NCBI GenBank assembly: GCA_000002435.2
Contig: CM018791.1
Strand: one strand, 5' to 3'
Length of the DNA stretch: 64,000 bases
Origin: Giardia intestinalis
Taxonomy: Eukaryota
The notes under the pieces: generated by a model
Databases searched by the model: none
What the model saw: the letters and a program-made list of their open reading frames with translations, nothing else
Told to the model about the DNA's origin: nothing
Made by a program: the position numbers and the translations under genes
Shown here: piece by piece, positions 3,265-34,153 of the stretch
Numbering within the stretch: position 1 is the stretch's first letter
Layout: every line of letters starts with the position of its first letter

Positions 3265-6200
3265 GTATATCTTAGACTCTTCTACACAGTCCAGTATGTC
3301 CAAGATCTCTGTAGATACGTTCCCACTGATGCTCATCTGGCCAGTGTCATTTAATTCGATAGTGTTCCGCTTTATGAGCAGTTTATTGCCATGCTCGACT
3401 TGTAGTATGGAGTTGCTGAACGCCTTTCGGAGGGCCTGTCTGCGCTCGTCGCTATTGTCATAGCGGTTCAGAAGTATCAGCTCTGCGGAGTCGTCATACG
3501 GATGTGTCGATTCCACATCTAAGGAGATATCATCATCAATTTTAACAGAAAAGTATCCTCGAGCGATGCTCATCTTGCGATCAATCTTGTTAAATACGAG
3601 GTTTCGACATACGGGAAACTTAACCTTTGGAACCTGATCATGTAGCGAAAAAGCGATGGTTTCTCCAGTTGTAAATAGTAGGCTGTTGCCAAAGTCTGCA
3701 AAGTGTCCGCTTGAGAGATGCACCTGATGTGACTTCTTGGAGGTTGTGACAATGTACTTTTTAAATCTGCCGCGTAGGATGTCTGCCATGTCCTGAAGCT
3801 GCATAATGGGCTCATCGAGAAGAAAGATAAGGTCACACGCGCATACGACTGAGTCAGATAGAGTAGTAGACGTCAGTATTCGGTATGCCTTCTCGCTCTT
3901 CTCCAACTTCATAGTTTCTTCGCAGTGCATCTCAGTGGAGTTGGCATCTGATAACTTGTTGATCGTGGCTGTCTCCTTCTTCTCGGCGATGATTGTCTTA
4001 ATGGATGCAGTGAACTCCTGAACCTGACGATGCCTTGCCATGCAGATGTTGTTGAGATGAGAAAGCGGTATGTCAAGGAATGGTAGGTTGGTTCCAGAGC
4101 GTGTCGAGATAGAACTGGGAAGTGGTGTATCGTCCTTTAAATGGAGGGTATTGGAGACGGGTATGTTGGGCTTAGAGACTTTAATCTCTGGTTCTTCTTT
4201 AACCGAGAGTATTGCCTTCTGTGACTTTTGGCACACAGATCCATAATTTTGTAGAAACAACAACCCATACTGATCTTGCTTACCCTCAAAGTTCTGGTCC
4301 TCATCCGTCTCTGTTAGTGTCCGATATGTTAGATGTAGCTCATCTGTCACTGAGTTATAGACTATGGCTACATCCTTTAAGAAAGCTGTTATCAAGAGTA
4401 TGAACAAGTCCTTTAGTCGTTGTTGGAACGCTATGCTCTGGGTCCCTATATCTTTTAAGGCATCAGGACTGGATCCAGGTGCCTTAGGGCCACTAGATGG
4501 TATCTGGGTAGCTTGCGCTGCAAAGGCGTTGGCATCAGCCAGGAATGTAAGGTAAGGGAGCATGCAGCCTTCTTGTTCTACAGCAGGAGATTCTATGCCG
4601 AAATAGAGATTAGGGGGGACCGCAATGCTATGTTTGGTAAGTACACTTGCTCGCAGGTCCATAGAGGATGGAGCCGGAATCTCTACGCCACCAACCTTGA
4701 CGATTGGACTGCGTCTGATATTCTTACTTCGATAGCCATTAGCATCGTATCCTATGGAGAGATAATGGACGAGAACAGATATGAACGTCATGTCAAAGCG
4801 GATATGGGGAGGTGACTCCAACGTAATGTCTTTGTAGGCATCTGTGGGAGGTATAAAGACATGAGTATCGGACATTCCTAAGATGGTGCGCAGTAGAGAG
4901 AGGCTGAATTCCAAATCTATCACAGGATCTAAGGTCTTAGTCACGGGATTGAAATATTTTGAAACTACTACGCCAAGAATCAAGCTTACGTTAGTTGTGA
5001 CATATCTTTCCTTTGCCTCTGGGGACAGAGCAGCTCCATCTGCTGCATCAGACTGATGAGACTTTTGGGGTCTTTGATCAGTAGTTGAGTCAGCGAGCTG
5101 TTTTTGATAAGCTTCTCTATCCATGATTGTTAATTGCGGGGTTGAAATTTTGGTTAGATGAGCGACCGATTTCCCCTGGCTTTTAAGAAGAATGAGGGAC
5201 AAGAGCTTGTAGCCTGGAGAGCCTCTGGCAATCTTTGGTAAGTACGGACGGATAGATGTCAGCACAATAATGTTTGCGGGGTTAGATGCAAAGCCTCCAG
5301 AGAATAAGAGCTGCCTTCCGGGACCAGACAGAAAGTAGGGGTCTGGAGTCAGTATGAATAATGGAAAGGGTAGGGGCACATCAAGTTGCTGTGCTCTCGA
5401 AGTAATATAAAATTCTGGGGTGATGATACCATCCATTCCAATGGTGCGTAGATAAGATACGTAGTAGAGAAAGACTTGCTCATCCATCAAGAGACAAATC
5501 TTGTAGCTGAGACGCTGCTCTTCTGCATCGGCTCGTTGATCGTTAGATTCAGCAACCGGCTTAGGTGTATATGTTTTTAGTGCAGTGCTAAGCAATGCTA
5601 AGACGTTAGTAAAGCCAGTGATACCATCGCAGACGAACATAGTCTTAGAATACCGCTGTATAGATTGCATAGATTGCGAACCGAAATCTGTTAACGGTGT
5701 GAAGGCACGTTCTAGAAGTTTAAGCATAGCGTGTGAGTCTAGCAGAGGAAAGTTTAGGATGCTCCTCGGAACATTCAAAGGGGTTGAAAAGCAAACCTCT
5801 CCTTTAAGATAGCGGCTGCTTAAGGGAAGATCCAGAGCGACTGAACGCTCCAAAGATTGATATGCGCCTCTATTCTGAAGTATGTCTAAGCTCTTATGGC
5901 GACATGTCGGCATGCAAACGATCTTATTTGTCGAAGGAGGCAGCTGGAGAGACCAGAAGTATTCATCTGCATTGATTCTGTGGTAACTTCCCAAGATAGA
6001 TTGCGTCACTGAGATGACGTTTATCTCCTCAGGTGATTGGATGAAGGAAGAATTGAATAGTCGCTCAAGCTTGAGGTAATCTAAGAGGATGAAGTCCAGA
6101 ACTGGCTGATGACCTTTCATATCAAGACATAAATTGAAGAAAACATTCAACACAGTAGCGTGGAGCGCGGGAACAAGATTGGTGGGTATAAATGTCTTGA

Positions 6201-6429
6201 TCTCCTTTCTGCTCAAAATATACAGGCAGGCACCTGCGTGTTCCAAGGCAGCCGATGTGAGGAGTATTGCGCTGATGTTATCGATGTGGTCATCATACAC
6301 TCGGAGATATGTCTCGTAGGGTGCAGCCAGGCCACAGTCGACAAGAAGAAGAGTGTCGTTTATGGTCAGCAGATACGCATGCACCCCAGTTTCTTCTACG
6401 TCGAAAAGCGGCTGCAGCTCGCATTCCAT
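3253..6429 (-). CDS. CPSF100/CPSF2-like protein, an inactive metallo-beta-lactamase-fold subunit of the mRNA 3'-processing complex (1058 aa).
   Basis: The N-terminus (HAYLLTINDTLLLVDCGL ... IDNISAILLTSAALEHAGACLYIL) parallels the CPSF100 pattern (CYLL..D...LLDCGW ... IDAVLLSHPDPLHLGALPY) and has lost the HxHxDH zinc motif. A long C-terminal region is as expected for CPSF100. The start codon is confirmed as ATG at 6427-6429. Confidence 0.5.
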   Translation of the reverse strand: MECELQPLFDVEETGVHAYLLTINDTLLLVDCGLAAPYETYLRVYDDHIDNISAILLTSAALEHAGACLYILSRKEIKTFIPTNLVPALHATVLNVFFNLCLDMKGHQPVLDFILLDYLKLERLFNSSFIQSPEEINVISVTQSILGSYHRINADEYFWSLQLPPSTNKIVCMPTCRHKSLDILQNRGAYQSLERSVALDLPLSSRYLKGEVCFSTPLNVPRSILNFPLLDSHAMLKLLERAFTPLTDFGSQSMQSIQRYSKTMFVCDGITGFTNVLALLSTALKTYTPKPVAESNDQRADAEEQRLSYKICLLMDEQVFLYYVSYLRTIGMDGIITPEFYITSRAQQLDVPLPFPLFILTPDPYFLSGPGRQLLFSGGFASNPANIIVLTSIRPYLPKIARGSPGYKLLSLILLKSQGKSVAHLTKISTPQLTIMDREAYQKQLADSTTDQRPQKSHQSDAADGAALSPEAKERYVTTNVSLILGVVVSKYFNPVTKTLDPVIDLEFSLSLLRTILGMSDTHVFIPPTDAYKDITLESPPHIRFDMTFISVLVHYLSIGYDANGYRSKNIRRSPIVKVGGVEIPAPSSMDLRASVLTKHSIAVPPNLYFGIESPAVEQEGCMLPYLTFLADANAFAAQATQIPSSGPKAPGSSPDALKDIGTQSIAFQQRLKDLFILLITAFLKDVAIVYNSVTDELHLTYRTLTETDEDQNFEGKQDQYGLLFLQNYGSVCQKSQKAILSVKEEPEIKVSKPNIPVSNTLHLKDDTPLPSSISTRSGTNLPFLDIPLSHLNNICMARHRQVQEFTASIKTIIAEKKETATINKLSDANSTEMHCEETMKLEKSEKAYRILTSTTLSDSVVCACDLIFLLDEPIMQLQDMADILRGRFKKYIVTTSKKSHQVHLSSGHFADFGNSLLFTTGETIAFSLHDQVPKVKFPVCRNLVFNKIDRKMSIARGYFSVKIDDDISLDVESTHPYDDSAELILLNRYDNSDERRQALRKAFSNSILQVEHGNKLLIKRNTIELNDTGQMSISGNVSTEILDILDCVEESKIYLPF

Positions 6430-6487
6430 CCCTGCTGAGTCCTTTTATAATTTTAGCTTCAACAGGAGTAGCTAAGAGAAACCTGCA

Positions 6488-6494
6488 TGTTTAC
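6488..6494 (-). promoter_or_regulatory. Candidate AGTAAAC poly(A) signal for the LRR gene (GTTTACT on the plus strand).
   Basis: An exact match to the diplomonad AGTRAAY poly(A) motif lies about 45 nt downstream of the minus-strand stop at 6538. Confidence 0.4.
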
Positions 6495-6537
6495 TTCTGG
6501 ATCAAAGCAGCAAACAGGATGAGCTTTGTCACATCGT

Positions 6538-7626
6538 TCACCTTCTGCGGACAATAGGCTTGTTCGTGCTGCGAGGCAGAGCTCTCACGGGTGCACGCTT
6601 CGATTGGGTCGGCTTGGTGATCGCACGAGCGGTGGGGCGGGCTACAGCAGAGCGGCTAGCATTGCCAGTCACAGAGCTCCTCGATTGGACCGTCTTCTTG
6701 GGAGCCGTCCTGGAGCGGGACGTTGAGGCCGTCTTGCTAGATGACCTAACCACTGTCCTGAGCGGTGTTTGGCTGCGGCTGTTTGGCATGTTGCATTTCC
6801 TCTGCGCATTGTGTGCACTGTTGTGCATGTTGCTCTTGGCCTTGCCACAGTTGGAGGCGCTACGAGCGTTGCAGCTTGTCTTTCGTCCCGACGCATTGCG
6901 GACTACTGTCTGCCTGTAGTACGTGCATCCATCTCTCTCGAGAGTTGTGGGGCAGTTTGTCGGCGGGAGAGCAGTGCAGTAATCGCAGTCTGTTGTTCCA
7001 CAGAGGTAGATTCCGGTGTAGGTGTCAGGCGCAGCTGTGCAAACGAGATCGGTGTTGCACTGGACATGAATCTCCATCATGTAAGGCAGGTCGAAGAGAT
7101 CTGCCGGAACGTCGCCAGTCAGCTCGTTGCAGTCAAGGTGGAGCTCCTTGAGGAATTGGAGTTCGTTGACGCAGGTGGGGATGGGACCAGTGAGAGCATT
7201 AATACTCATGTACCAAAACATCATGTGGGTTAAATCACAGATGCACTCGGGAATGTCACCCGTCAGCCCAGCGTTGTTAATTTGCAGGTACTGCATTGAG
7301 GTGAGGGCACAAAGATCCGTCGGGATCGGGCCCGCAAGGTCATTATTATTAAGGTACAGCGACCTCAAAAGTGGGAAGCAGCCTATGTCGGCAGGGAGGG
7401 CACCAGTGAGCCCCATGTCAGAGAGGTCGATCCCAATAACGTTATTGTTAGAGTCGCATGTGATGCCGGTCCAGCTACAGTAAGACACGTCGGGCGTAAG
7501 CCAGTTATTCGACTTCCAATTAGCACCATCCAGGGCATCGTACAAATTGGTCAGGGCCTCCTCCTCGGTGGCAGGGCAAGCGGCGCGAGCAAGACCAAGA
7601 AGTCCTAGAACAAGGGCTGCGATCAT
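6538..7626 (-). CDS. Secreted leucine-rich-repeat protein (plant-type LRR) with a Cys-rich cap and a highly basic Ser/Thr/Arg/Lys-rich C-terminal tail (362 aa).
   Basis: N-terminal signal peptide MIAALVLGLLGLARAA. Repeated LxxLxLxxNxLxGxIP units (LRSLYLNNNDLAGPIPTDL, LQINNAGLTGDIPECI, LHLDCNELTGDVPADL). Multi-Cys region (CGTTDCDYCTALPPTNCP). The last ~110 aa are about 35% R/K/S/T with no hydrophobic segment. Confidence 0.75.
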   Translation of the reverse strand: MIAALVLGLLGLARAACPATEEEALTNLYDALDGANWKSNNWLTPDVSYCSWTGITCDSNNNVIGIDLSDMGLTGALPADIGCFPLLRSLYLNNNDLAGPIPTDLCALTSMQYLQINNAGLTGDIPECICDLTHMMFWYMSINALTGPIPTCVNELQFLKELHLDCNELTGDVPADLFDLPYMMEIHVQCNTDLVCTAAPDTYTGIYLCGTTDCDYCTALPPTNCPTTLERDGCTYYRQTVVRNASGRKTSCNARSASNCGKAKSNMHNSAHNAQRKCNMPNSRSQTPLRTVVRSSSKTASTSRSRTAPKKTVQSRSSVTGNASRSAVARPTARAITKPTQSKRAPVRALPRSTNKPIVRRR

Positions 7627-27700: not shown

Positions 27701-28569
27701 ATCGCTATAGGCTGTGGGGTAGTCACCAGATCTATCAAGACACTCTTGCACTGTATGGACCCTCTGCTAGGGAACGGGTGCACCTTGTAGCGTGCTGGAA
27801 TGGTGACGGGAAGGCGCCTGATCTCGTTCAATTGATTATTGTACCAGCGATAGAGCCGAAGGACCAGCAGTTGGGTAGACCCTCGGGCATCGAGTTGTCC
27901 CAGCAACCGAGCGTACATGTGTCTCATGCCGTTTACGTCTATGTACTTATTTGCAGCAGTAGGTAGTTCAATAATAAGCACATAGGGTGGAGAACCTTGA
28001 ACATGCAGAGCCTCCCCAAAGATGTGGAGTGAATCAGCCACCGGCCGAATGATAAGTTGCTGAGTTTGCAAGCGGGTGCGCTTAATGAACAGCTTGGTAA
28101 GGACAGGAATATACGTCAATAGCAAAAGATATGAAGAGTCTCCCGGAAAGCATACGTCAGCAGGACTCCGAAGGCGAATGGAGGCGGTGAGTCCTTGCTG
28201 TTTAAGGTTAGTGACCGTTATGGTATACTGATATCGTGCACCCCAATCACGAGTAACAGTTGAAATGGCAAGAAGATGCCCATTGGGAGAAATAGCTGCT
28301 GAAAGTATGCGGCTCGTGGAAGGAAGAGAGGATAAAAGGGTAGCGCTCTTATTATGCTGGTGATCGTGTAATAAGATCTCTGAGAAAATACAGCGCTGAT
28401 TTTGCAGACGGCAAATAATTTCTCGAACCAAAAGAAATCTGGGTGAAGTCTCGGTGCCGACATCAAGAACACATGGTCCAGAGTGAACTCCAATCACCCG
28501 GAGATTTGCAGGACCCTCTGTGGTCCCTGAAGAACGAGGGAAGAGGCGTTCACGCGTTATCGTTAACAT
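24730..28569 (-). CDS. Large hypothetical protein (1279 aa). The N-terminal region is beta-rich (possible propeller). The central region is Ser/Thr/Pro-rich with basic stretches.
   Basis: Uninterrupted 3.8 kb ORF with a confirmed ATG at 28567-28569. The central low-complexity region includes a KRKKQKQ basic cluster. Confidence 0.8.
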   Translation of the reverse strand: MLTITRERLFPRSSGTTEGPANLRVIGVHSGPCVLDVGTETSPRFLLVREIICRLQNQRCIFSEILLHDHQHNKSATLLSSLPSTSRILSAAISPNGHLLAISTVTRDWGARYQYTITVTNLKQQGLTASIRLRSPADVCFPGDSSYLLLLTYIPVLTKLFIKRTRLQTQQLIIRPVADSLHIFGEALHVQGSPPYVLIIELPTAANKYIDVNGMRHMYARLLGQLDARGSTQLLVLRLYRWYNNQLNEIRRLPVTIPARYKVHPFPSRGSIQCKSVLIDLVTTPQPIAIFSCHSLGCTMIKICACLTASIFTFSLATPLQKVTEDAPRTAFQANAPHEKTLPAERDSTYLFNYEYVTATLHKFILLVHANYLLFIQPFSLSTAQLVIVALPSYGSMYIAYSALLPFQVCNFQAYYALKQFSKLPPVSSYISKYQSQAQYLLHYMALSLVDLSKEQILTDMHAARTTIDRMLEYVISPMSGSGGYADTPFGFISYAELASVYMHTRVRQIAGLPEAPKLDVEALCGWTGLNKENYPDVGMDSLHPTSLLSSLITLALNDPKSGASTLARTTSKATDSTPSPHTHQDVSATNLSTSRRLANPARIPSAMHTCQTDYTDEPRSPGEPSIPPIVVAPPTLTDLNALHSEVHSVNDSPDNFLTSTVTTSVADTTAFDELDEQPPQKRSGPRHKELSIDTLVSQRKVLLSQFQRKRKKQKQAADLDSSVTSVVSKKSMSSKLTSQFTPMIEAKDLEQKSLESDCASLSLELTYLSRPISGSINFPMQSTIDLTGLLKCIPQPSYTFYLKDIDEICHLSRSWRYSVIPSYCSSAEGWSTKVTFAAFDMLLQRQLDLTVDLSQLAINLCHPRPKDMCACLYEARLLRLNHKLVLLYHRYTRLLHINLLTIASDINTPSFSDSSQLHSIHVEWWKRLLSKLRTHCMLEYSTLVGCLLEKVSISLKTSNPSDSNAIQFSLLALKGILLNTQKANTSYPCSLAINLYSNPLHVFLHSVTQDKILTSSPWSKCTTMYAAHSYLHISNTLEHPSSATQLCTSKTDATNSLEQFGIPQQNIPIYDQSVEKNIKFGAGRAIELYKYMSTDSICPTYTNNYAQECLVELNTYVSDITALTTVAPCLSAFSGLITQRLDGQPSVEDEIEASIDTPILHASADLITNYSCNDCRHVWRDSAIYKAFVAIVERFYPNIADPFFIQVYADVISMCEACLGIDTNFSIEELNVIISICESLNLNLMGHRSTSRVLNRALSLLYGKFSDPMLQEMMGKYL

Positions 28570-28950
28570 CCTCTTCTTTAAAAATTTGTGCTACTCTACT
28601 CTACCCTATCGTTCTCAGGTAATTAATGATATCATAAAAAACAGAGAGACTTGTTAGTCGTGCACTCTACATAAGCTCAAGCCTAGAATTTAACAGATGT
28701 TTCACGGAGTAGAATGGAACTAATTATATTTGGGATTGATGTTTTATAGGTCTCCTGCTCTTTTTAGAGTTGCACTAAGCTGACGAGGTTTCCTCTTTCT
28801 TTGCTTATGGTTCATGCTTTTCTGACGCTGATTGGATTTGCTTGCAGGTTATTACTGAGCTCTACTACTGTTTCCGCTTCAAGTGAACTTTCTGCCGGCC
28901 GCGTTATACAGTATCATTGAAGATTTGTTATAACAACTATAACTCAAAAA

Positions 28951-31437
28951 ATGACGTCTGCGCCGCAGCCCTCGGGCCTCTTCGACCCGGCGCCCCGGCC
29001 CACGGCGGCGGGGGACGGACGCCCGCCCGCGGCAGCCGCGCCCTCGTTCGTCCTCGCCGGCGACCCCGAGGGCCTCGCAGGCGCGTTCCTCCGCGTCGTC
29101 CACCAGGCGCTCGTCCTCGGGCGGCTCGAGGCCCTCCTCGACGGCCCCCCGCCCGCCGGAGACGCCCCGCAGCTCTGGGCCGGGCTCCTCCGCGCCGCGC
29201 TCGCCGGGGCGGGGACGCTCGACCTGGGGCCTCTTGCCGCGCAGCTCGGGCCGCTCCCAGACCCCGGGGCGCTCCCGGCGCTCGTCCGCTCCCTCCCGGC
29301 CCCCGTCTGCGCCGCGCTCTTCGGGCTCCCCGGGCCCTGCCCCGCGTGCGGCGCGCCCTCCCAGCCCGGGGCGAGCGCCGTCCTCGCGCCCGGAGAGGCC
29401 CTCGCCGCAGGGGCCCGGCGGGTCGGCCTCCGCTGCGAGAGCTGCACCCGCCCAGACGCCCTCCCGCTCGCCCGGCCGCCCCTCCTCCGCGCCGTCGCCG
29501 TCCCCCCGGGCTTCGCGGGCCCCGTCCCCCTCCGGCTCCCCGGCGACCTCTTCCTCGGGGCCGTCGTCACCCGCGCCCGCGCCGGCCACGCGCTCTCGGT
29601 CTTCGTCAACCCCGCCTTCGCCCAGGGCCGGAGCGACCTCGTCCGGGACCGCCGCTTCGTCCTCTACGCGCCCCCGGCCGCCGAGCTCCGCGCCCAGCCC
29701 GGGAGCCGCGCCGCCGAGCTCACGTACCTCCGCTACCGGAAGGTCCAGGCGTACCTCGAGCGCCCCGCCGCCGCCCGCGAGGCCGCCTCCTTCGGGGCGC
29801 CCCGCTTCGTCTTCTACTTCGACGGAGACGTTCTGCACCCAGACATTAGGAAGCGCTTTAATGCGCTAGCCTCTGATACTGACCTGATTGCGATTAATCC
29901 ATCACTATCTGCTCCACATCAGCCTCCAACCCTTTCGCAGCCACACACGCTATCCTCCCCCAAGGAGCCAGAAACTGTTGATGTCACACTTAAAGTCGGT
30001 GGTGCTACCAAGCAAACTCTAGCTGAACAGCAGCACACTCTTGCCTCTCCGTCCCTAGATTCGAGACCGCCTTTGAGTACACTTTCTTTGCACAAATCTA
30101 GCCAACTAGTTGGTGAATCGACTCCTTGGAAAGAAACCAAGACGATCTTATTGCGCCCAGACTTTGTTCAGGAAAGGAAAACATCGTGTTCAGATGAATT
30201 TCGTGAGCACATGGGCATATACATTCTGATTATTGTTCTAGCAGTTATAGTTCTTGTTCTCTTCATCCTCGTGATTGTTCTCTATTCCAGATTGATTAAT
30301 TTGACTGTTCGCAATCTACTTGTCACAAATTTCACGGCAATAGGTGTCCAGTCACGCTTAGACATCCCCAACCCAGCGCAGTTCACGTGCCCAAGTGGGA
30401 TTCAAGACGTGAACGCAGTAAGATACTGTGAGCAGATGGCTCCTGATGCAACCGTTGGCCTCTATGCACCAACTGTTCGAACCGGTACATTCAATTCTAA
30501 GCAGTACAATGTGACCAACCTCTACTATTCTAATATCTTCCTTCTTAACTTTACTCAGATAGCCCCTCTGAATGTCTCCGAACTCATAGCACAGAATATT
30601 ATGACAAATGACGTCACATATAGTACAGAACTTGTCCAGGAAGGGACAGCAGAGTTCCGGACCGGCCAGGTTAGTGTCCAAGGCTTTAGAAGTGCAGATT
30701 TCACCAACACAACGCTGAATTTCAGTCTTACGAGCCTTTCTGCTCTTCATGTGCGTGGCATCTCCTCGCCAAGCTCTGTGACTCCGTCGACTATAGGAAC
30801 TGTCAATGCCGGCAAACTAGTGTTGGCTCAAAAAGATCCAATCACTCCAATCACCACCTTCAGTATAATAGGAGACGTCAATGTGTCACGCCTCGTTGGA
30901 GGCTCTACAACAATCGGACAGCAGGCACTAGAATGGGTGTTTCAGAACGTATCCGCTTCCAAGCTAGTTACCACACCCGTAACAACGACAGTCAAGACAA
31001 TCAATGGAATGGATACTCCTGTCACATTAGATATAAACCTCAATGATGCTTTGTCCGTGAAGACTCTCACTCTTCTTAAGTCGGGTACGTCGGCATCGAT
31101 CCAAATATCTGCTGCATTTACCATCAGTAAGGCTTCTGTATACAATTGCACTACAGCCTTGCTGACAATTCCTAGTGCCACAGCGACTCCGCCCAACACG
31201 GGAACTGGTTTGTATATCAAGAGCCTCTCTGATAAACCGTTTCCTCAGATATCTGCTCTGGTTGTGGGGAATATTCGGATTGACAATGGGGGGATATGCA
31301 ACGCCAATGACCCTCCGGCATCTACGACGCGGACATGCATGATATCAAGCGCAGGCAGCAGCAATATCGGGTCTATGTCTGCCACGACAGTCACTTCTAC
31401 TGGGCAGTTGAAGAGCTCTTTCTGCCAATGCACATGA
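28951..31437 (+). CDS. Compositionally chimeric ORF (828 aa): an Ala/Pro/Gly/Arg/Leu-rich N-terminal ~295 aa encoded by ~80% GC DNA, fused in frame to a single-pass membrane protein with a Thr/Ser/Asn-rich ectodomain.
   Basis: ATG at 28951 follows an A/T-rich initiator (aactataactcaaaaaATG). GC3 exceeds 90% through ~29836, then composition abruptly returns to ~45% GC. There is a TM segment MGIYILIIVLAVIVLVLFILVIVLY at ~30212-30290 and many NxS/T sequons downstream. An alternative internal start is the Met at 30211. Confidence 0.55.
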   Translation: MTSAPQPSGLFDPAPRPTAAGDGRPPAAAAPSFVLAGDPEGLAGAFLRVVHQALVLGRLEALLDGPPPAGDAPQLWAGLLRAALAGAGTLDLGPLAAQLGPLPDPGALPALVRSLPAPVCAALFGLPGPCPACGAPSQPGASAVLAPGEALAAGARRVGLRCESCTRPDALPLARPPLLRAVAVPPGFAGPVPLRLPGDLFLGAVVTRARAGHALSVFVNPAFAQGRSDLVRDRRFVLYAPPAAELRAQPGSRAAELTYLRYRKVQAYLERPAAAREAASFGAPRFVFYFDGDVLHPDIRKRFNALASDTDLIAINPSLSAPHQPPTLSQPHTLSSPKEPETVDVTLKVGGATKQTLAEQQHTLASPSLDSRPPLSTLSLHKSSQLVGESTPWKETKTILLRPDFVQERKTSCSDEFREHMGIYILIIVLAVIVLVLFILVIVLYSRLINLTVRNLLVTNFTAIGVQSRLDIPNPAQFTCPSGIQDVNAVRYCEQMAPDATVGLYAPTVRTGTFNSKQYNVTNLYYSNIFLLNFTQIAPLNVSELIAQNIMTNDVTYSTELVQEGTAEFRTGQVSVQGFRSADFTNTTLNFSLTSLSALHVRGISSPSSVTPSTIGTVNAGKLVLAQKDPITPITTFSIIGDVNVSRLVGGSTTIGQQALEWVFQNVSASKLVTTPVTTTVKTINGMDTPVTLDINLNDALSVKTLTLLKSGTSASIQISAAFTISKASVYNCTTALLTIPSATATPPNTGTGLYIKSLSDKPFPQISALVVGNIRIDNGGICNANDPPASTTRTCMISSAGSSNIGSMSATTVTSTGQLKSSFCQCT
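28956..29836 (+). other. Roughly 0.9 kb compositional island (~80% GC against a ~48% background) with strong 3-nt periodicity in the +1 frame of the 28951 ORF.
   Basis: Codon-by-codon reading shows third positions are almost exclusively G/C while second positions are mixed. All six frames are stop-free across the block: ORF-track entries 28879-29838(-), 28917-29849(+), 28944-29609(-) and 29234-29869(+) all terminate at the edges of the block. Confidence 0.9.
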
Positions 31438-31465
31438 GGGTTGAAAAGCATCATATGGTTTCCAT

Positions 31466-34153
31466 TTACATATCTTGTAACCTGTAGATTGCGGATACAA
31501 AGGCAACAAAAAGGGTGTGCGGGAGTCTGTGTTTTGACGTGAATTCAGGATGGTACTGGGTGGCCATGAAGAAGGGGTGTGCTTCTGTTGGTAACTCCAC
31601 AGCCATAGGAAGTTGGTTGGTGAAGTCCATACCACTTATTATCAGTCCGTGCTCAGTCAAGGTATCAATGTACTGGGTGTTGACGGCGAACGAGTGCCAG
31701 TGACGCTCCTTCACCTGAGGATACTTGTTGTAGCACTCGGATAGCATTGTGTTTGACTTAACTGACACCAGAAGGTCGCCCAGTCGCATAGTGCTATACT
31801 TTGCGGTGGTACCCGGATTGGCCGCGTTCTGCTGCTTGTGGAGAGGTTTGATTTGCCCGGTCTCAAGCATCTCACTAATGGGAATAATGAGTTTGTGCGG
31901 AGTGTCAGGGTCCATTTCCGTCGAGTTTGCATGGCTGAGACCACATACATTTCTCGCAAACTCGCACACCATCATCTGGAAGCCAAGACAGAGACCAAGT
32001 ATTGGCTTGTTGTGAGTTCTTGCATATTTAATCGATAACATAAGGCCGTTAACACCAATGTCTCCAAACCCACCAGGAAGAACAAACCCGTGGGCCTCTT
32101 GTAGAATGTCATCACAGTTCTTTTCATCAAGAGCTGTGGGATCTACCCACAGGAATGCGAATGGCTTATCATGGTAGTATTTGTGCATAGTAGCCCGCAG
32201 TGCTTCCAGGATAGAGAGGTAGGAGTCCTCTCTTGCAACAAACTTCCCGACAATTGCTATAATGCAGGGAAGATCCAAATGCTTAAGGGTCATTTCATGG
32301 CGAAGAGTTTTTGCTTGGGCTGCACTTGCAAGCATCTGCTGCAAACTCGTCTCGACTTCCTTTTTCTTCAGATTTTCAATGCGCAACTTTAAGTGTCCAT
32401 CAGCGTTCGAGGGGTGATGATGCTTTTTGAGCTTCAGTGTTACGTGGGTACTTCTATTACGTACAGATGCGGAGGACCCAGAATTATGAGCCAAGACGAT
32501 TTCTCCAGGAACTTCACTGGTAGACTCACTTGGGCCTTGCAATTCTGAGTGAGCTGTCGGTGTGTGCGCGCAGGAATCTGTGCAGTAACTATGGCCACTC
32601 TGGTAGCTCTGGTAGCTTTGATGGCTTGGTAGGTCTTTTGCCGTAGCTGTAATCAAGGACCCAAGGGGCATATTGGTGTCTTTCTCTGCAAGAAAGGCAT
32701 CTCCATAGTTCTTGACCATCTTTGCCACGCTTTTGGACCCAAAGTATTTCTTCTGTGAACTTAAGTGTGACTTATCAGCAATAGTACTAGTGTCAGACTC
32801 GGAATCATACAGTGCCATGTCCGAGATGACCTCTTCGGAGTGGTCCTCGTCATATATGTTGGACGCCAGGCGCATGTGCGTTAACTTCTGGCTTATAGAC
32901 TTGCAGCAGAGATCAGTTGGGGATGCCAAATATGTAAAAGTTGCCTCTGTGATGGCCTCATTGACATCCAGCAAGTGTGAATTAAGGGTACAAATGGGGC
33001 ACACTTCTGTATTCTTTGCGGTCCCACATATCATGCAGATGGCACCAAAAATGCCTTCAGCTGCGTGATCCTGCTCTTCAGTAATGTTCGCCAGAGCGTT
33101 ATCGAATCCTCTGAGCACCTCGTCCCCCAATTCCACCACCTCTTCGCGGTCCACCCTCATCTCCACGAGGACATTCCCAAGCGCCTCCATCTGACCCGTG
33201 CATTTGGCCATCTCAATAGCTTTCTTCATATCTGTTTCAGCTGTTAACGCGCTCTCATCAGTGAATGAAGGAAGAACCGCCATCGAGCTGACCAGCTCTG
33301 TTGCAGACTTGGCAGCAAAGGCCTTGAACGCCCAAGCTTTGTTCCATTTGGCAATGAGCTCTTTCAGCATTATTTTCTCGTCAGACATTCCTTTAGCGTC
33401 TACTCGCGTTGCATTGATGGTGTATTCATCGTCCAAAATGTCTGTGCTATTTAGGTTCTGAAGTTGTATGAGGTAGTCCGGGGCGTACCCGCAGAAAAGC
33501 TGCATTATCTCTGGCTTGATTGCATCAGGATTTGCTGTGGCCATCAAAATAATGATGCTGCCTCGCTGCGGAGCAGATGGAGGTGGATCTTCACTGCAAC
33601 TCAGAGACAGCAGCCTCTCGATGGTTCTAGTAAAAATTTGGGTTGAGGGTTGGCGCACACCGCCCCCAATCTCAACGATACGAATGGGGATTTCATAGGA
33701 ATTCATACCTGAAGAAGGTGGATGCTGCAGGGTGGGCTCCATCTGGATGTACGTAACAAGGTAATCCAATAGGTCCTCTTCGAAGGTAAGCCGTGTAAAC
33801 CCGGTTTCCTGTTGCTTCGCCTGTTGAATGTACAGCTGCTGAATGGCCTGTCCAAGGGTTAAACATGACGTTCGCGGCAGCTCTCCCGTTATACTTCTCT
33901 CAATGATCCCCACGTCATAATCCACCTCGCCACCGTCCCATGTGATGAAGGCCTCACCCTCCTTCTCTGGAGAAAGATTTCCAAAAGTTAAAGATAGGGT
34001 TGTGGAGAGCTTTAGGTACGAGAAAGGGATTCTTTTCTGGTCTAGATAAGAGGCCAGATAGGCCGACAGAGCTGTTGTCTTCGCATTGTAGTCATCTGTG
34101 AGAATGAAAATAAAGCGCTGGACGCCCTTCGTTACATCTGCAGAAAGAGGCAT
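31466..34153 (-). CDS. Divergent CTP synthase-like protein (895 aa) with a ~330-aa insertion between the synthetase and glutamine-amidotransferase domains.
   Basis: The N-terminus aligns to the CTPS synthetase domain ([27 protein letters not shown] vs [35 protein letters not shown] vs IVELGGTVGD). The C-terminal ~250 aa is a class-I GATase with the catalytic Cys in GLCLGFQ and His in YHPEF. The central region (residues ~290-620) has no CTPS counterpart. Confidence 0.7.
   Translation of the reverse strand: [895 protein letters not shown]

Follow-up and report, generated by a model that had tools for sequence, protein, structure and literature searches.

Introduction

Variant-specific surface proteins (VSPs) and high-cysteine membrane proteins (HCMPs) of Giardia are type I membrane proteins that have a signal peptide at the N-terminus and a transmembrane segment at the C-terminus and that contain more than 10% Cys arranged in CxxC motifs. 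At least 20 CxxC/CxC motifs are expected of an HCMP, whereas VSPs carry in addition a GGCY motif and a CRGKA tail. Another layout of relevance here is that of bacterial zinc-finger anti-sigma-type membrane proteins, in which a cytosolic CxxC...CxxC module is followed by one transmembrane segment and a variable outer domain. The gene analyzed in this work, GL50803_114636 of Giardia intestinalis, lies in a window of 64,000 nucleotides from contig CM018791.1 (assembly GCA_000002435.2), and all positions given below refer to this whole stretch of DNA. Its complete coding sequence (CDS; 28951..31437, plus strand) was defined from the listing of open reading frames (ORFs) and from an exact sequence match to GL50803_114636 of G. 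intestinalis WB C6 (XP_001710255.1 / KAE8303189.1 / UniProt A8B3L8), which is annotated as a hypothetical protein of 828 aa with its stop codon at 31435–31437.

The original prediction had focused on 29850–31437, that is, on residues 301–828 of this protein, and had proposed that they might constitute a surface-protein gene of their own. This stretch is part of a gene model already present in RefSeq, whose protein is uncharacterized. We consider it fairly likely that the gene encodes a single-pass membrane protein specific to Giardia duodenalis, its translation starting at 28951 and its C-terminal tail being located outside the cell or in a luminal compartment. The RefSeq model of GL50803_114636 is the right one and the proposed split is wrong, while little changes for the prediction as it was worded.

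Extent of the Gene and Translation Start

The position of the translation start was evaluated from the linker that connects the GC-rich 5' part of the frame with the membrane segment (aa 296–421; 29836..30213, plus strand; delimited by composition and by the ratio of nonsynonymous to synonymous substitution rates, dN/dS). In a codon alignment of assemblages A, E (P15), and B (GS), dN/dS for the linker amounts to 0.105 between A and E, 0.129 between A and B, and 0.23 between E and B. Its synonymous divergence is as large as that of the tail (dS 0.67–2.2; proportion of synonymous differences, pS, 0.44–0.71), and all indels among the three assemblages are in-frame. Such purifying selection in the same frame indicates that the 125 codons upstream of Met421 are translated in that frame. 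Since M1 and Met421 are separated by no other Met in the WB protein, the linker can only be translated from 28951, whose ATG is the first start codon to follow the stop upstream.

The GC-rich block displays GC contents at the first, second, and third codon positions (GC1/GC2/GC3) of 0.85/0.61/0.96 in the frame of the ORF, a coding pattern for that frame and for no other. In P15 (assemblage E) and GS (assemblage B), too, no stop interrupts the frame within the GC block as far as the contigs reach. For the downstream half, a run of 529 codons without a stop would arise by chance with a probability of ~6e-12, given its own base composition. Just ahead of the start codon, an AT-rich stretch (28921..28950, plus strand; ...ataactcaaaaaATG) is the likely initiator or promoter, in line with what is generally known of Giardia promoters. 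Its A+T content (0.80 for positions −30 to −1) is the highest among 18 ATG-initiated long ORFs examined in the window, versus 0.57 for the same interval at 30211. On this sequence evidence, linker, membrane segment, and tail belong to one long product translated from 28951.

The alternative, already contained in the original prediction, is an independent gene encoding a 408-aa protein from Met421 (30211), in which the hydrophobic segment would act as an N-terminal signal peptide or anchor, the GC block and linker being then a separate gene or non-coding. An ATG does mark the very beginning of the hydrophobic segment, and the P15 annotation contains the same 408-aa model (GLP15_4190). The first RefSeq model of GL50803_28832, the only paralog (XP_001710223.2, 770 aa; same WB chromosome record), also used an internal start. 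That model was later lengthened from 369 aa (.1) to 770 aa (.2). Examination of the contigs involved gives these short models a different meaning. GLP15_4190 comprises 408 aa from the internal Met and bears the label partial; its contig, in which the frame is open from the first base, ends within the GC block at a distance of 550 nt from the model. Contigs end inside the GC tract in three independent drafts, namely GS (1–430), P15 (1–170), and BAH15c1 (1–155, the contig of the paralog). Truncated models of this gene or its paralog include GLP15_4190, GLP15_3499, the GS entry 'Chromosome segregation ATPase, partial', and a 475-aa model of BAH15c1. At least three of these short models stand at contig breaks in the GC tract, which makes them unfit as evidence for an internal start. 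The GS and P15 orthologs of GL50803_114636 were themselves recovered, both syntenic with CTP synthase. The name of the GS entry, 'Chromosome segregation ATPase', is attached to a gene with no Pfam domain on record.

Further observations disagree with an independent gene: the linker upstream of Met421 evolves under purifying selection in the same frame and with normal synonymous divergence, residues 1–421 offer no other Met, the 30 nt upstream of 30211 are not AT-rich, and the paralog, which shows the same layout, does not keep the Met421 position (REHLLIY vs REHMGIY here). Moreover, by general topology rules, a 24-residue h-region lacking a positive n-region and followed by a positive C-flank is expected to adopt an N-out/C-in orientation, leaving the proposed ectodomain in the cytosol, so that no conventional surface protein would be obtained from that start either. 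An independent gene starting at 30211 is thus very unlikely, and this part of the original prediction is not supported.

It is hardly credible that the long ORF is a pseudogene or artifact in which a foreign GC-rich fragment became joined, by chance or in the assembly, to a Giardia gene. Such a fusion would account for GC contents that step from 0.37–0.52 to 0.8 and back within tens of bases, for the breaks of draft assemblies in the GC block, and for an open frame as such, DNA of 80% GC having open frames in all six frames. Nonetheless, WB, DH, P15, GS, and BAH15c1 all display the in-frame junctions in their independent assemblies, the GC1/GC2/GC3 pattern singles out the frame of the ORF, and neither a bacterial, archaeal, or viral relative nor an Rfam match was found. 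A recent bacterial or viral origin of the tract is likewise unsupported, no relative of the encoded module having been found in 185,579 prokaryotic species genomes or in viral contigs, although an old origin of this kind is conceivable. Its identification as a fragment of ribosomal DNA (rDNA) was discarded on the lack of any Rfam match in 28000–32000.

Architecture of the Protein

The protein begins with a module rich in Ala, Leu, Pro, Gly, and Arg (aa 1–295; 28951..29835, plus strand), presumed to be cytosolic and encoded by DNA of GC content 0.77–0.85, with a GC3 of 0.956 in its own frame. Two motifs of this module, CPAC (aa 130–133; 29338–29349) and CESC (aa 162–165; 29434–29445), are found 28 residues apart, a zinc-ribbon-like spacing, and CESC is kept in assemblage B; they might constitute a zinc ribbon or metal-binding pair. 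The linker follows; its 126 aa are of low complexity and include 12.7% S, 11.9% L, 10.3% P, and 10.3% T, in good agreement with the Ser/Pro/Thr/Leu-rich linker of ~120 aa initially described, and ends in a conserved EFREH-M.

The single transmembrane segment GIYILIIVLAVIVLVLFILVIVLY (aa 422–445; 30214..30285, plus strand) was delineated by hydropathy and conservation. It is the sole stretch of the protein with Kyte–Doolittle(19) values above 1.6, reaching a peak of 3.99; it shows 96% identity and a dN/dS of 0.011 in the comparison of assemblage A with B, and it is recognizably kept in GL50803_28832. The hydrophobic segment had therefore been correctly perceived, its limits (30212–30290) being displaced with respect to those found here, 30211–30285 when Met421 is included. 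Hydropathy over the first 60 residues does not exceed a maximum of 1.05, which indicates that GL50803_114636 has no N-terminal signal peptide. Immediately after the membrane, profile–profile alignment with the paralog group reveals the juxtamembrane motif SRLINLTVRNLLVTN (aa 446–460; 30286..30330, plus strand), whose invariant columns are L, L, V, N, L, V, and T.

This motif opens the Thr/Ser/Asn-rich C-terminal domain or tail (aa 446–828; 30286..31434, plus strand), recognized by its composition, its sequons, and its dN/dS, and presumed to be extracytoplasmic. Its 383 aa include T 14.1%, S 11.2%, and N 7.3% (S+T 25%), T+V+I 29.5%, and Pro 5%; the T+V+I content suggests, as sole indication, that the domain could be β-rich. 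dN/dS for the tail is 0.096–0.099 across the assemblage pairs of A, E, and B, values which identify it, as far as codon evolution can tell, as real, constrained protein sequence. Hydropathy and composition hence agree with the predicted order of one transmembrane segment and a Thr/Ser/Asn-rich, Cys-poor domain.

Cys residues are scarce in the tail (seven, 1.8%, at positions 480, 493, 733, 783, 796, 825, and 827), and the whole protein has 13 in 828 aa, with one CxC and with both CxxC motifs in the N-terminal module. The motifs initially noticed, FTCPSG..RYCEQ, GICNAN..RTCMIS, and CQCT, are all matched among the seven. The first corresponds to the pair C480...C493 (30388..30429, plus strand) and the second to C783...C796 (31297..31338, plus strand). 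Both pairs are kept in A, E, and B and could form disulfide loops; in the paralog the segment of the first pair is gapped, as is the second segment. The C-terminal C-x-C (CQC, aa 825–827; 31423..31431, plus strand) has invariant Cys columns in the six-sequence alignment and reads CIC in the paralog. Regarding N-x-S/T sites, the tail contains 10, none being found before the membrane segment, and their density of 2.61 per 100 aa is 3.8-fold that of 23 other long ORFs of the window pooled (0.69 per 100 aa; Poisson P ~4e-4).

Such a composition (S+T 25%, N 7.3%, 10 sequons) is also what would be displayed by a mucin-like protein, as the original prediction had suggested, or by a repeat adhesin, with the tail as an extended, heavily glycosylated, low-complexity stalk. 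Several features contradict this comparison. TRF finds no tandem array in the tail DNA, autocorrelation of the tail shows no outstanding offset (highest z ~3 among 80 offsets), Pro amounts to only 5%, and no Pfam adhesin or repeat profile, that of Pmp-type adhesins (Chlam_PMP) included, matches any of six family members at E up to 10. In addition, the T+V+I content together with a dN/dS of ~0.10 maintained over 383 aa, that is, strong purifying selection, points to a folded, constrained domain. A mucin-like or repeat-type stalk is therefore highly improbable, and an adhesin-like character, also suggested originally, would be conjecture.

Membrane Topology

In the hydropathy scan, the only hydrophobic segment is internal and no cleavable signal peptide is seen at the N-terminus, as is characteristic of type II proteins. 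The internal segment would then most likely act as a signal-anchor; the Arg-rich N-terminal module with its CPAC...CESC pair would stay in the cytosol together with the linker, and the C-terminal domain would enter the lumen of the endoplasmic reticulum, its final place being the cell exterior or an endomembrane compartment. Giardia makes a short N-glycan, GlcNAc2 (two N-acetylglucosamine units), and some of the 10 sequons could carry it. The original prediction had rightly made orientation dependent on the start used, the start at 28951 leading to a likely N-in/C-out protein.

The same long protein could also adopt the opposite, N-out/C-in orientation, with the Thr/Ser/Asn-rich domain in the cytosol and the GC-encoded module exposed. 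According to the classical charge-difference and hydrophobicity rules, a positive C-flank and a long hydrophobic segment favor an N-terminus-out disposition in model proteins. The charge difference across the membrane segment, with a negative N-flank and a positive C-flank, would by these rules keep the C-flank cytosolic, and the segment is both long and extremely hydrophobic. Considering that (i) the N-terminal region comprises 421 residues, 26 of them Arg, and lacks a signal peptide, so that its translocation would be unusual and is unlikely, (ii) all 10 sequons and the two conserved Cys pairs, with their putative loops, are situated on the C-terminal side, and (iii) CPAC...CESC looks like a metal site, which would suit the cytosol, the type II orientation is favored. 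Judged from these sequence features, N-in/C-out is the likely orientation of GL50803_114636, and N-out/C-in an unlikely one.

A number of observations must nevertheless be counted against a single long product with an external, glycosylated, and host-directed tail. The flanks of the membrane segment carry a charge of −1 before it and +2 after it, evaluated over 15 residues, and its 24 residues are extremely hydrophobic, both features being those expected for N-out/C-in. When the tail is shuffled, 6.8 ± 2.2 sequons are obtained versus the 10 observed (P = 0.10), so that the sequon density is due to the N/S/T-rich composition and glycosylation is left without independent support. The tail is thus sequon-dense in absolute terms, as had been stated, without any special enrichment. 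Conservation of eight of the 10 sequons in A, E, and B is about the expectation from 77% identity. A minor, additional short product may be translated from Met421. AlphaFold2 models reached a predicted local distance difference test (pLDDT) score of 29.1 for the tail (six-sequence alignment), too poor to judge a β-solenoid fold, and of 32.4 for aa 1–420 (three sequences), which is unusable. Finally, a host-interaction role would have as its sole basis the modest transcript change described below.

A GC-Rich Tract Shared by Two Paralogs

GL50803_28832 and GL50803_114636 share their general organization, consisting of a GC-encoded N-terminal module, a linker, REH followed by the transmembrane segment, the juxtamembrane motif (L-x-x-L-x-V-x-N-L-x-V-T-N in both), a T/S/N-rich tail, and the C-x-C. 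Their N-terminal modules are ~99% identical in protein, while the tail of GL50803_28832 is ~55 aa shorter and lacks both Cys-pair insertions of GL50803_114636. Beyond the juxtamembrane motif, no similarity between the two tails was detectable by BLASTP (E 6.7), and hhalign of the two ortholog groups aligned only the juxtamembrane region (34 columns, E 0.015). Consequently, the 22–25% identity produced by MAFFT is no evidence, and a demonstrable homology of the tails was rejected.

At the DNA level, similarity is concentrated in a tract of 878 bp (28948–29825), of which 877 nt are identical to GL50803_28832 in isolate DH (DH contig 6010–6887). At both edges, which coincide with the GC step, identity drops to the random level over no more than 30 nt, and just 3' of the tract similarity fades out in the space of a few tens of nt, with only the membrane segment and the short juxtamembrane motif remaining recognizable. 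The start coordinate of the original prediction (29850) nearly coincides with the 3' edge of the tract. Within it, GC is ~0.8 and GC3 0.96–0.98 in A, E, and B. Third codon positions differ between A and B at 9.2% inside the tract vs 48.9% in the rest of the gene, eight of the 13 differences in the tract being G<->C, and dS between these assemblages is ~10-fold lower inside (0.11 vs 1.4–2.2). Over ~150 nt available for five sequences, five diagnostic sites unite the two assemblage-B paralogs against A, A2, and E, which indicates that the tract groups by assemblage and not by gene.

As read from these alignments, the pattern points to a signature of concerted evolution by inter-paralog gene conversion, and the exact coincidence of the tract with the extreme GC content suggests GC-biased conversion as the cause. 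Giardia genes associated with gene conversion have been reported to be GC-enriched (PMC12669663), and GC-biased conversion has been proposed for the GC-rich rDNA of Giardia (PMC10123126). A wider scenario is plausible, although we hold it only tentatively: the two genes would form a G. duodenalis family whose tract is homogenized by ongoing gene conversion, GC-biased repair having driven it to ~97% GC3, while the outer domains have diverged into alternative 'heads' on a shared intracellular module, switched on by host contact. If true, this would be an unusually clean natural case of concerted evolution confined to a tract, and of biased gene conversion, in a single-copy-type protein gene, and one from a protist long regarded as asexual. 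A sharply bounded tract of 97% GC3, common to two otherwise unrelated-looking paralogs, offers a handle on gene conversion and GC bias in Giardia.

Expression and Genomic Neighborhood

RNA-seq of trophozoites' transcripts on differentiated Caco-2 cells gave for GL50803_114636 fold changes of 2.6, 3.0, and 2.8 at 1.5, 3, and 4.5 h (log counts per million, logCPM, 6.49), and HCMPs were co-induced with it on host-cell contact (PMC7461913). The gene was also among the top up-regulated ones in encysting cells on Caco-2 (PMC9094438). No localization or functional study of 114636 or 28832 was found in the literature. As a working model, GL50803_114636 would be a host-contact-responsive membrane protein whose variable outer domain binds something, while its conserved cytosolic module would do intracellular work. 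Being lineage-restricted, induced by host contact, and neither a VSP nor an HCMP, it is a reasonable candidate for a part in host interaction.

The window has ~46% GC, is without introns, and is densely packed with genes. The convergent neighbor of GL50803_114636 is CTP synthase (31466..34153, minus strand), and the stop codons of both genes are only 28 nt apart (31435–31468), which forces their 3' ends and polyadenylation signals to overlap or to lie directly side by side. This CTP synthase has 895 aa, its GS ortholog having 975 aa. Its match to CTP_synth_N extends to residue 181 and corresponds to profile positions 19–159 of 265, and its GATase match begins at residue 665; the gap between these matches indicates a Ser/His/Thr-rich insertion of ~480 aa between the conserved parts. 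On the other side, a divergent intergenic region of 381 nt (28570–28950; 34–44% GC), unusually long for the window, separates GL50803_114636 from a minus-strand gene of 1279 aa. The minus-strand ORFs found in 29850–31437 (130, 92, and 69 aa) were dismissed, as they are without support and overlap a constrained plus-strand CDS.

Comparison with Known Systems

When 1.84 billion representatives were scanned in full with HMMER, three matches were obtained, all of them from Giardia. As judged from such searches, the protein has no detectable relatives outside Giardia duodenalis, and its family consists of two paralogs found only in this species. Searches with the N-terminal 300 aa alone gave no match, missing even the near-identical paralog, and are uninformative, low-complexity words having probably swamped the candidates. 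Pfam provided no credible match either for the whole protein and both halves (E up to 1) or for the six family tails (E up to 10), and comparison with the PDB by sequence and by profile yielded chance-level matches only (E ≥ 0.05).

VSPs and HCMPs resemble GL50803_114636 in being single-pass membrane proteins of Giardia. Unlike them, it has no signal peptide, its tail is Cys-poor, and its transmembrane segment is placed mid-protein. Membership in the VSPs was rejected, since the tail has 1.8% Cys with neither CxxC after the transmembrane segment nor GGCY, and since the protein, with that segment at aa 422–445 of 828 and no signal peptide, finishes in ...SFCQCT without CRGKA. These features bear out the initial impression that the protein does not resemble the CxxC-rich variant-surface families. 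Membership in the HCMPs was similarly rejected, given 13 Cys in 828 aa, two CxxC motifs confined to the N-terminal module, and one CxC.

In comparison with the bacterial anti-sigma-type proteins, the layout is alike in gross outline, and the composition of the N-terminal module resembles that of high-GC bacteria. Against this similarity stand the lack of any match in Pfam (E up to 1) or the PDB and of any relative in the 185,579 prokaryotic species genomes. With generic type II signal-anchor glycoproteins, GL50803_114636 has in common one internal hydrophobic segment, no cleavable signal, and a large C-terminal domain with sequons and Cys pairs. It differs from them in that its presumed cytosolic part, of 421 aa, is unusually long and in that the charges flanking its membrane segment break the positive-inside rule.

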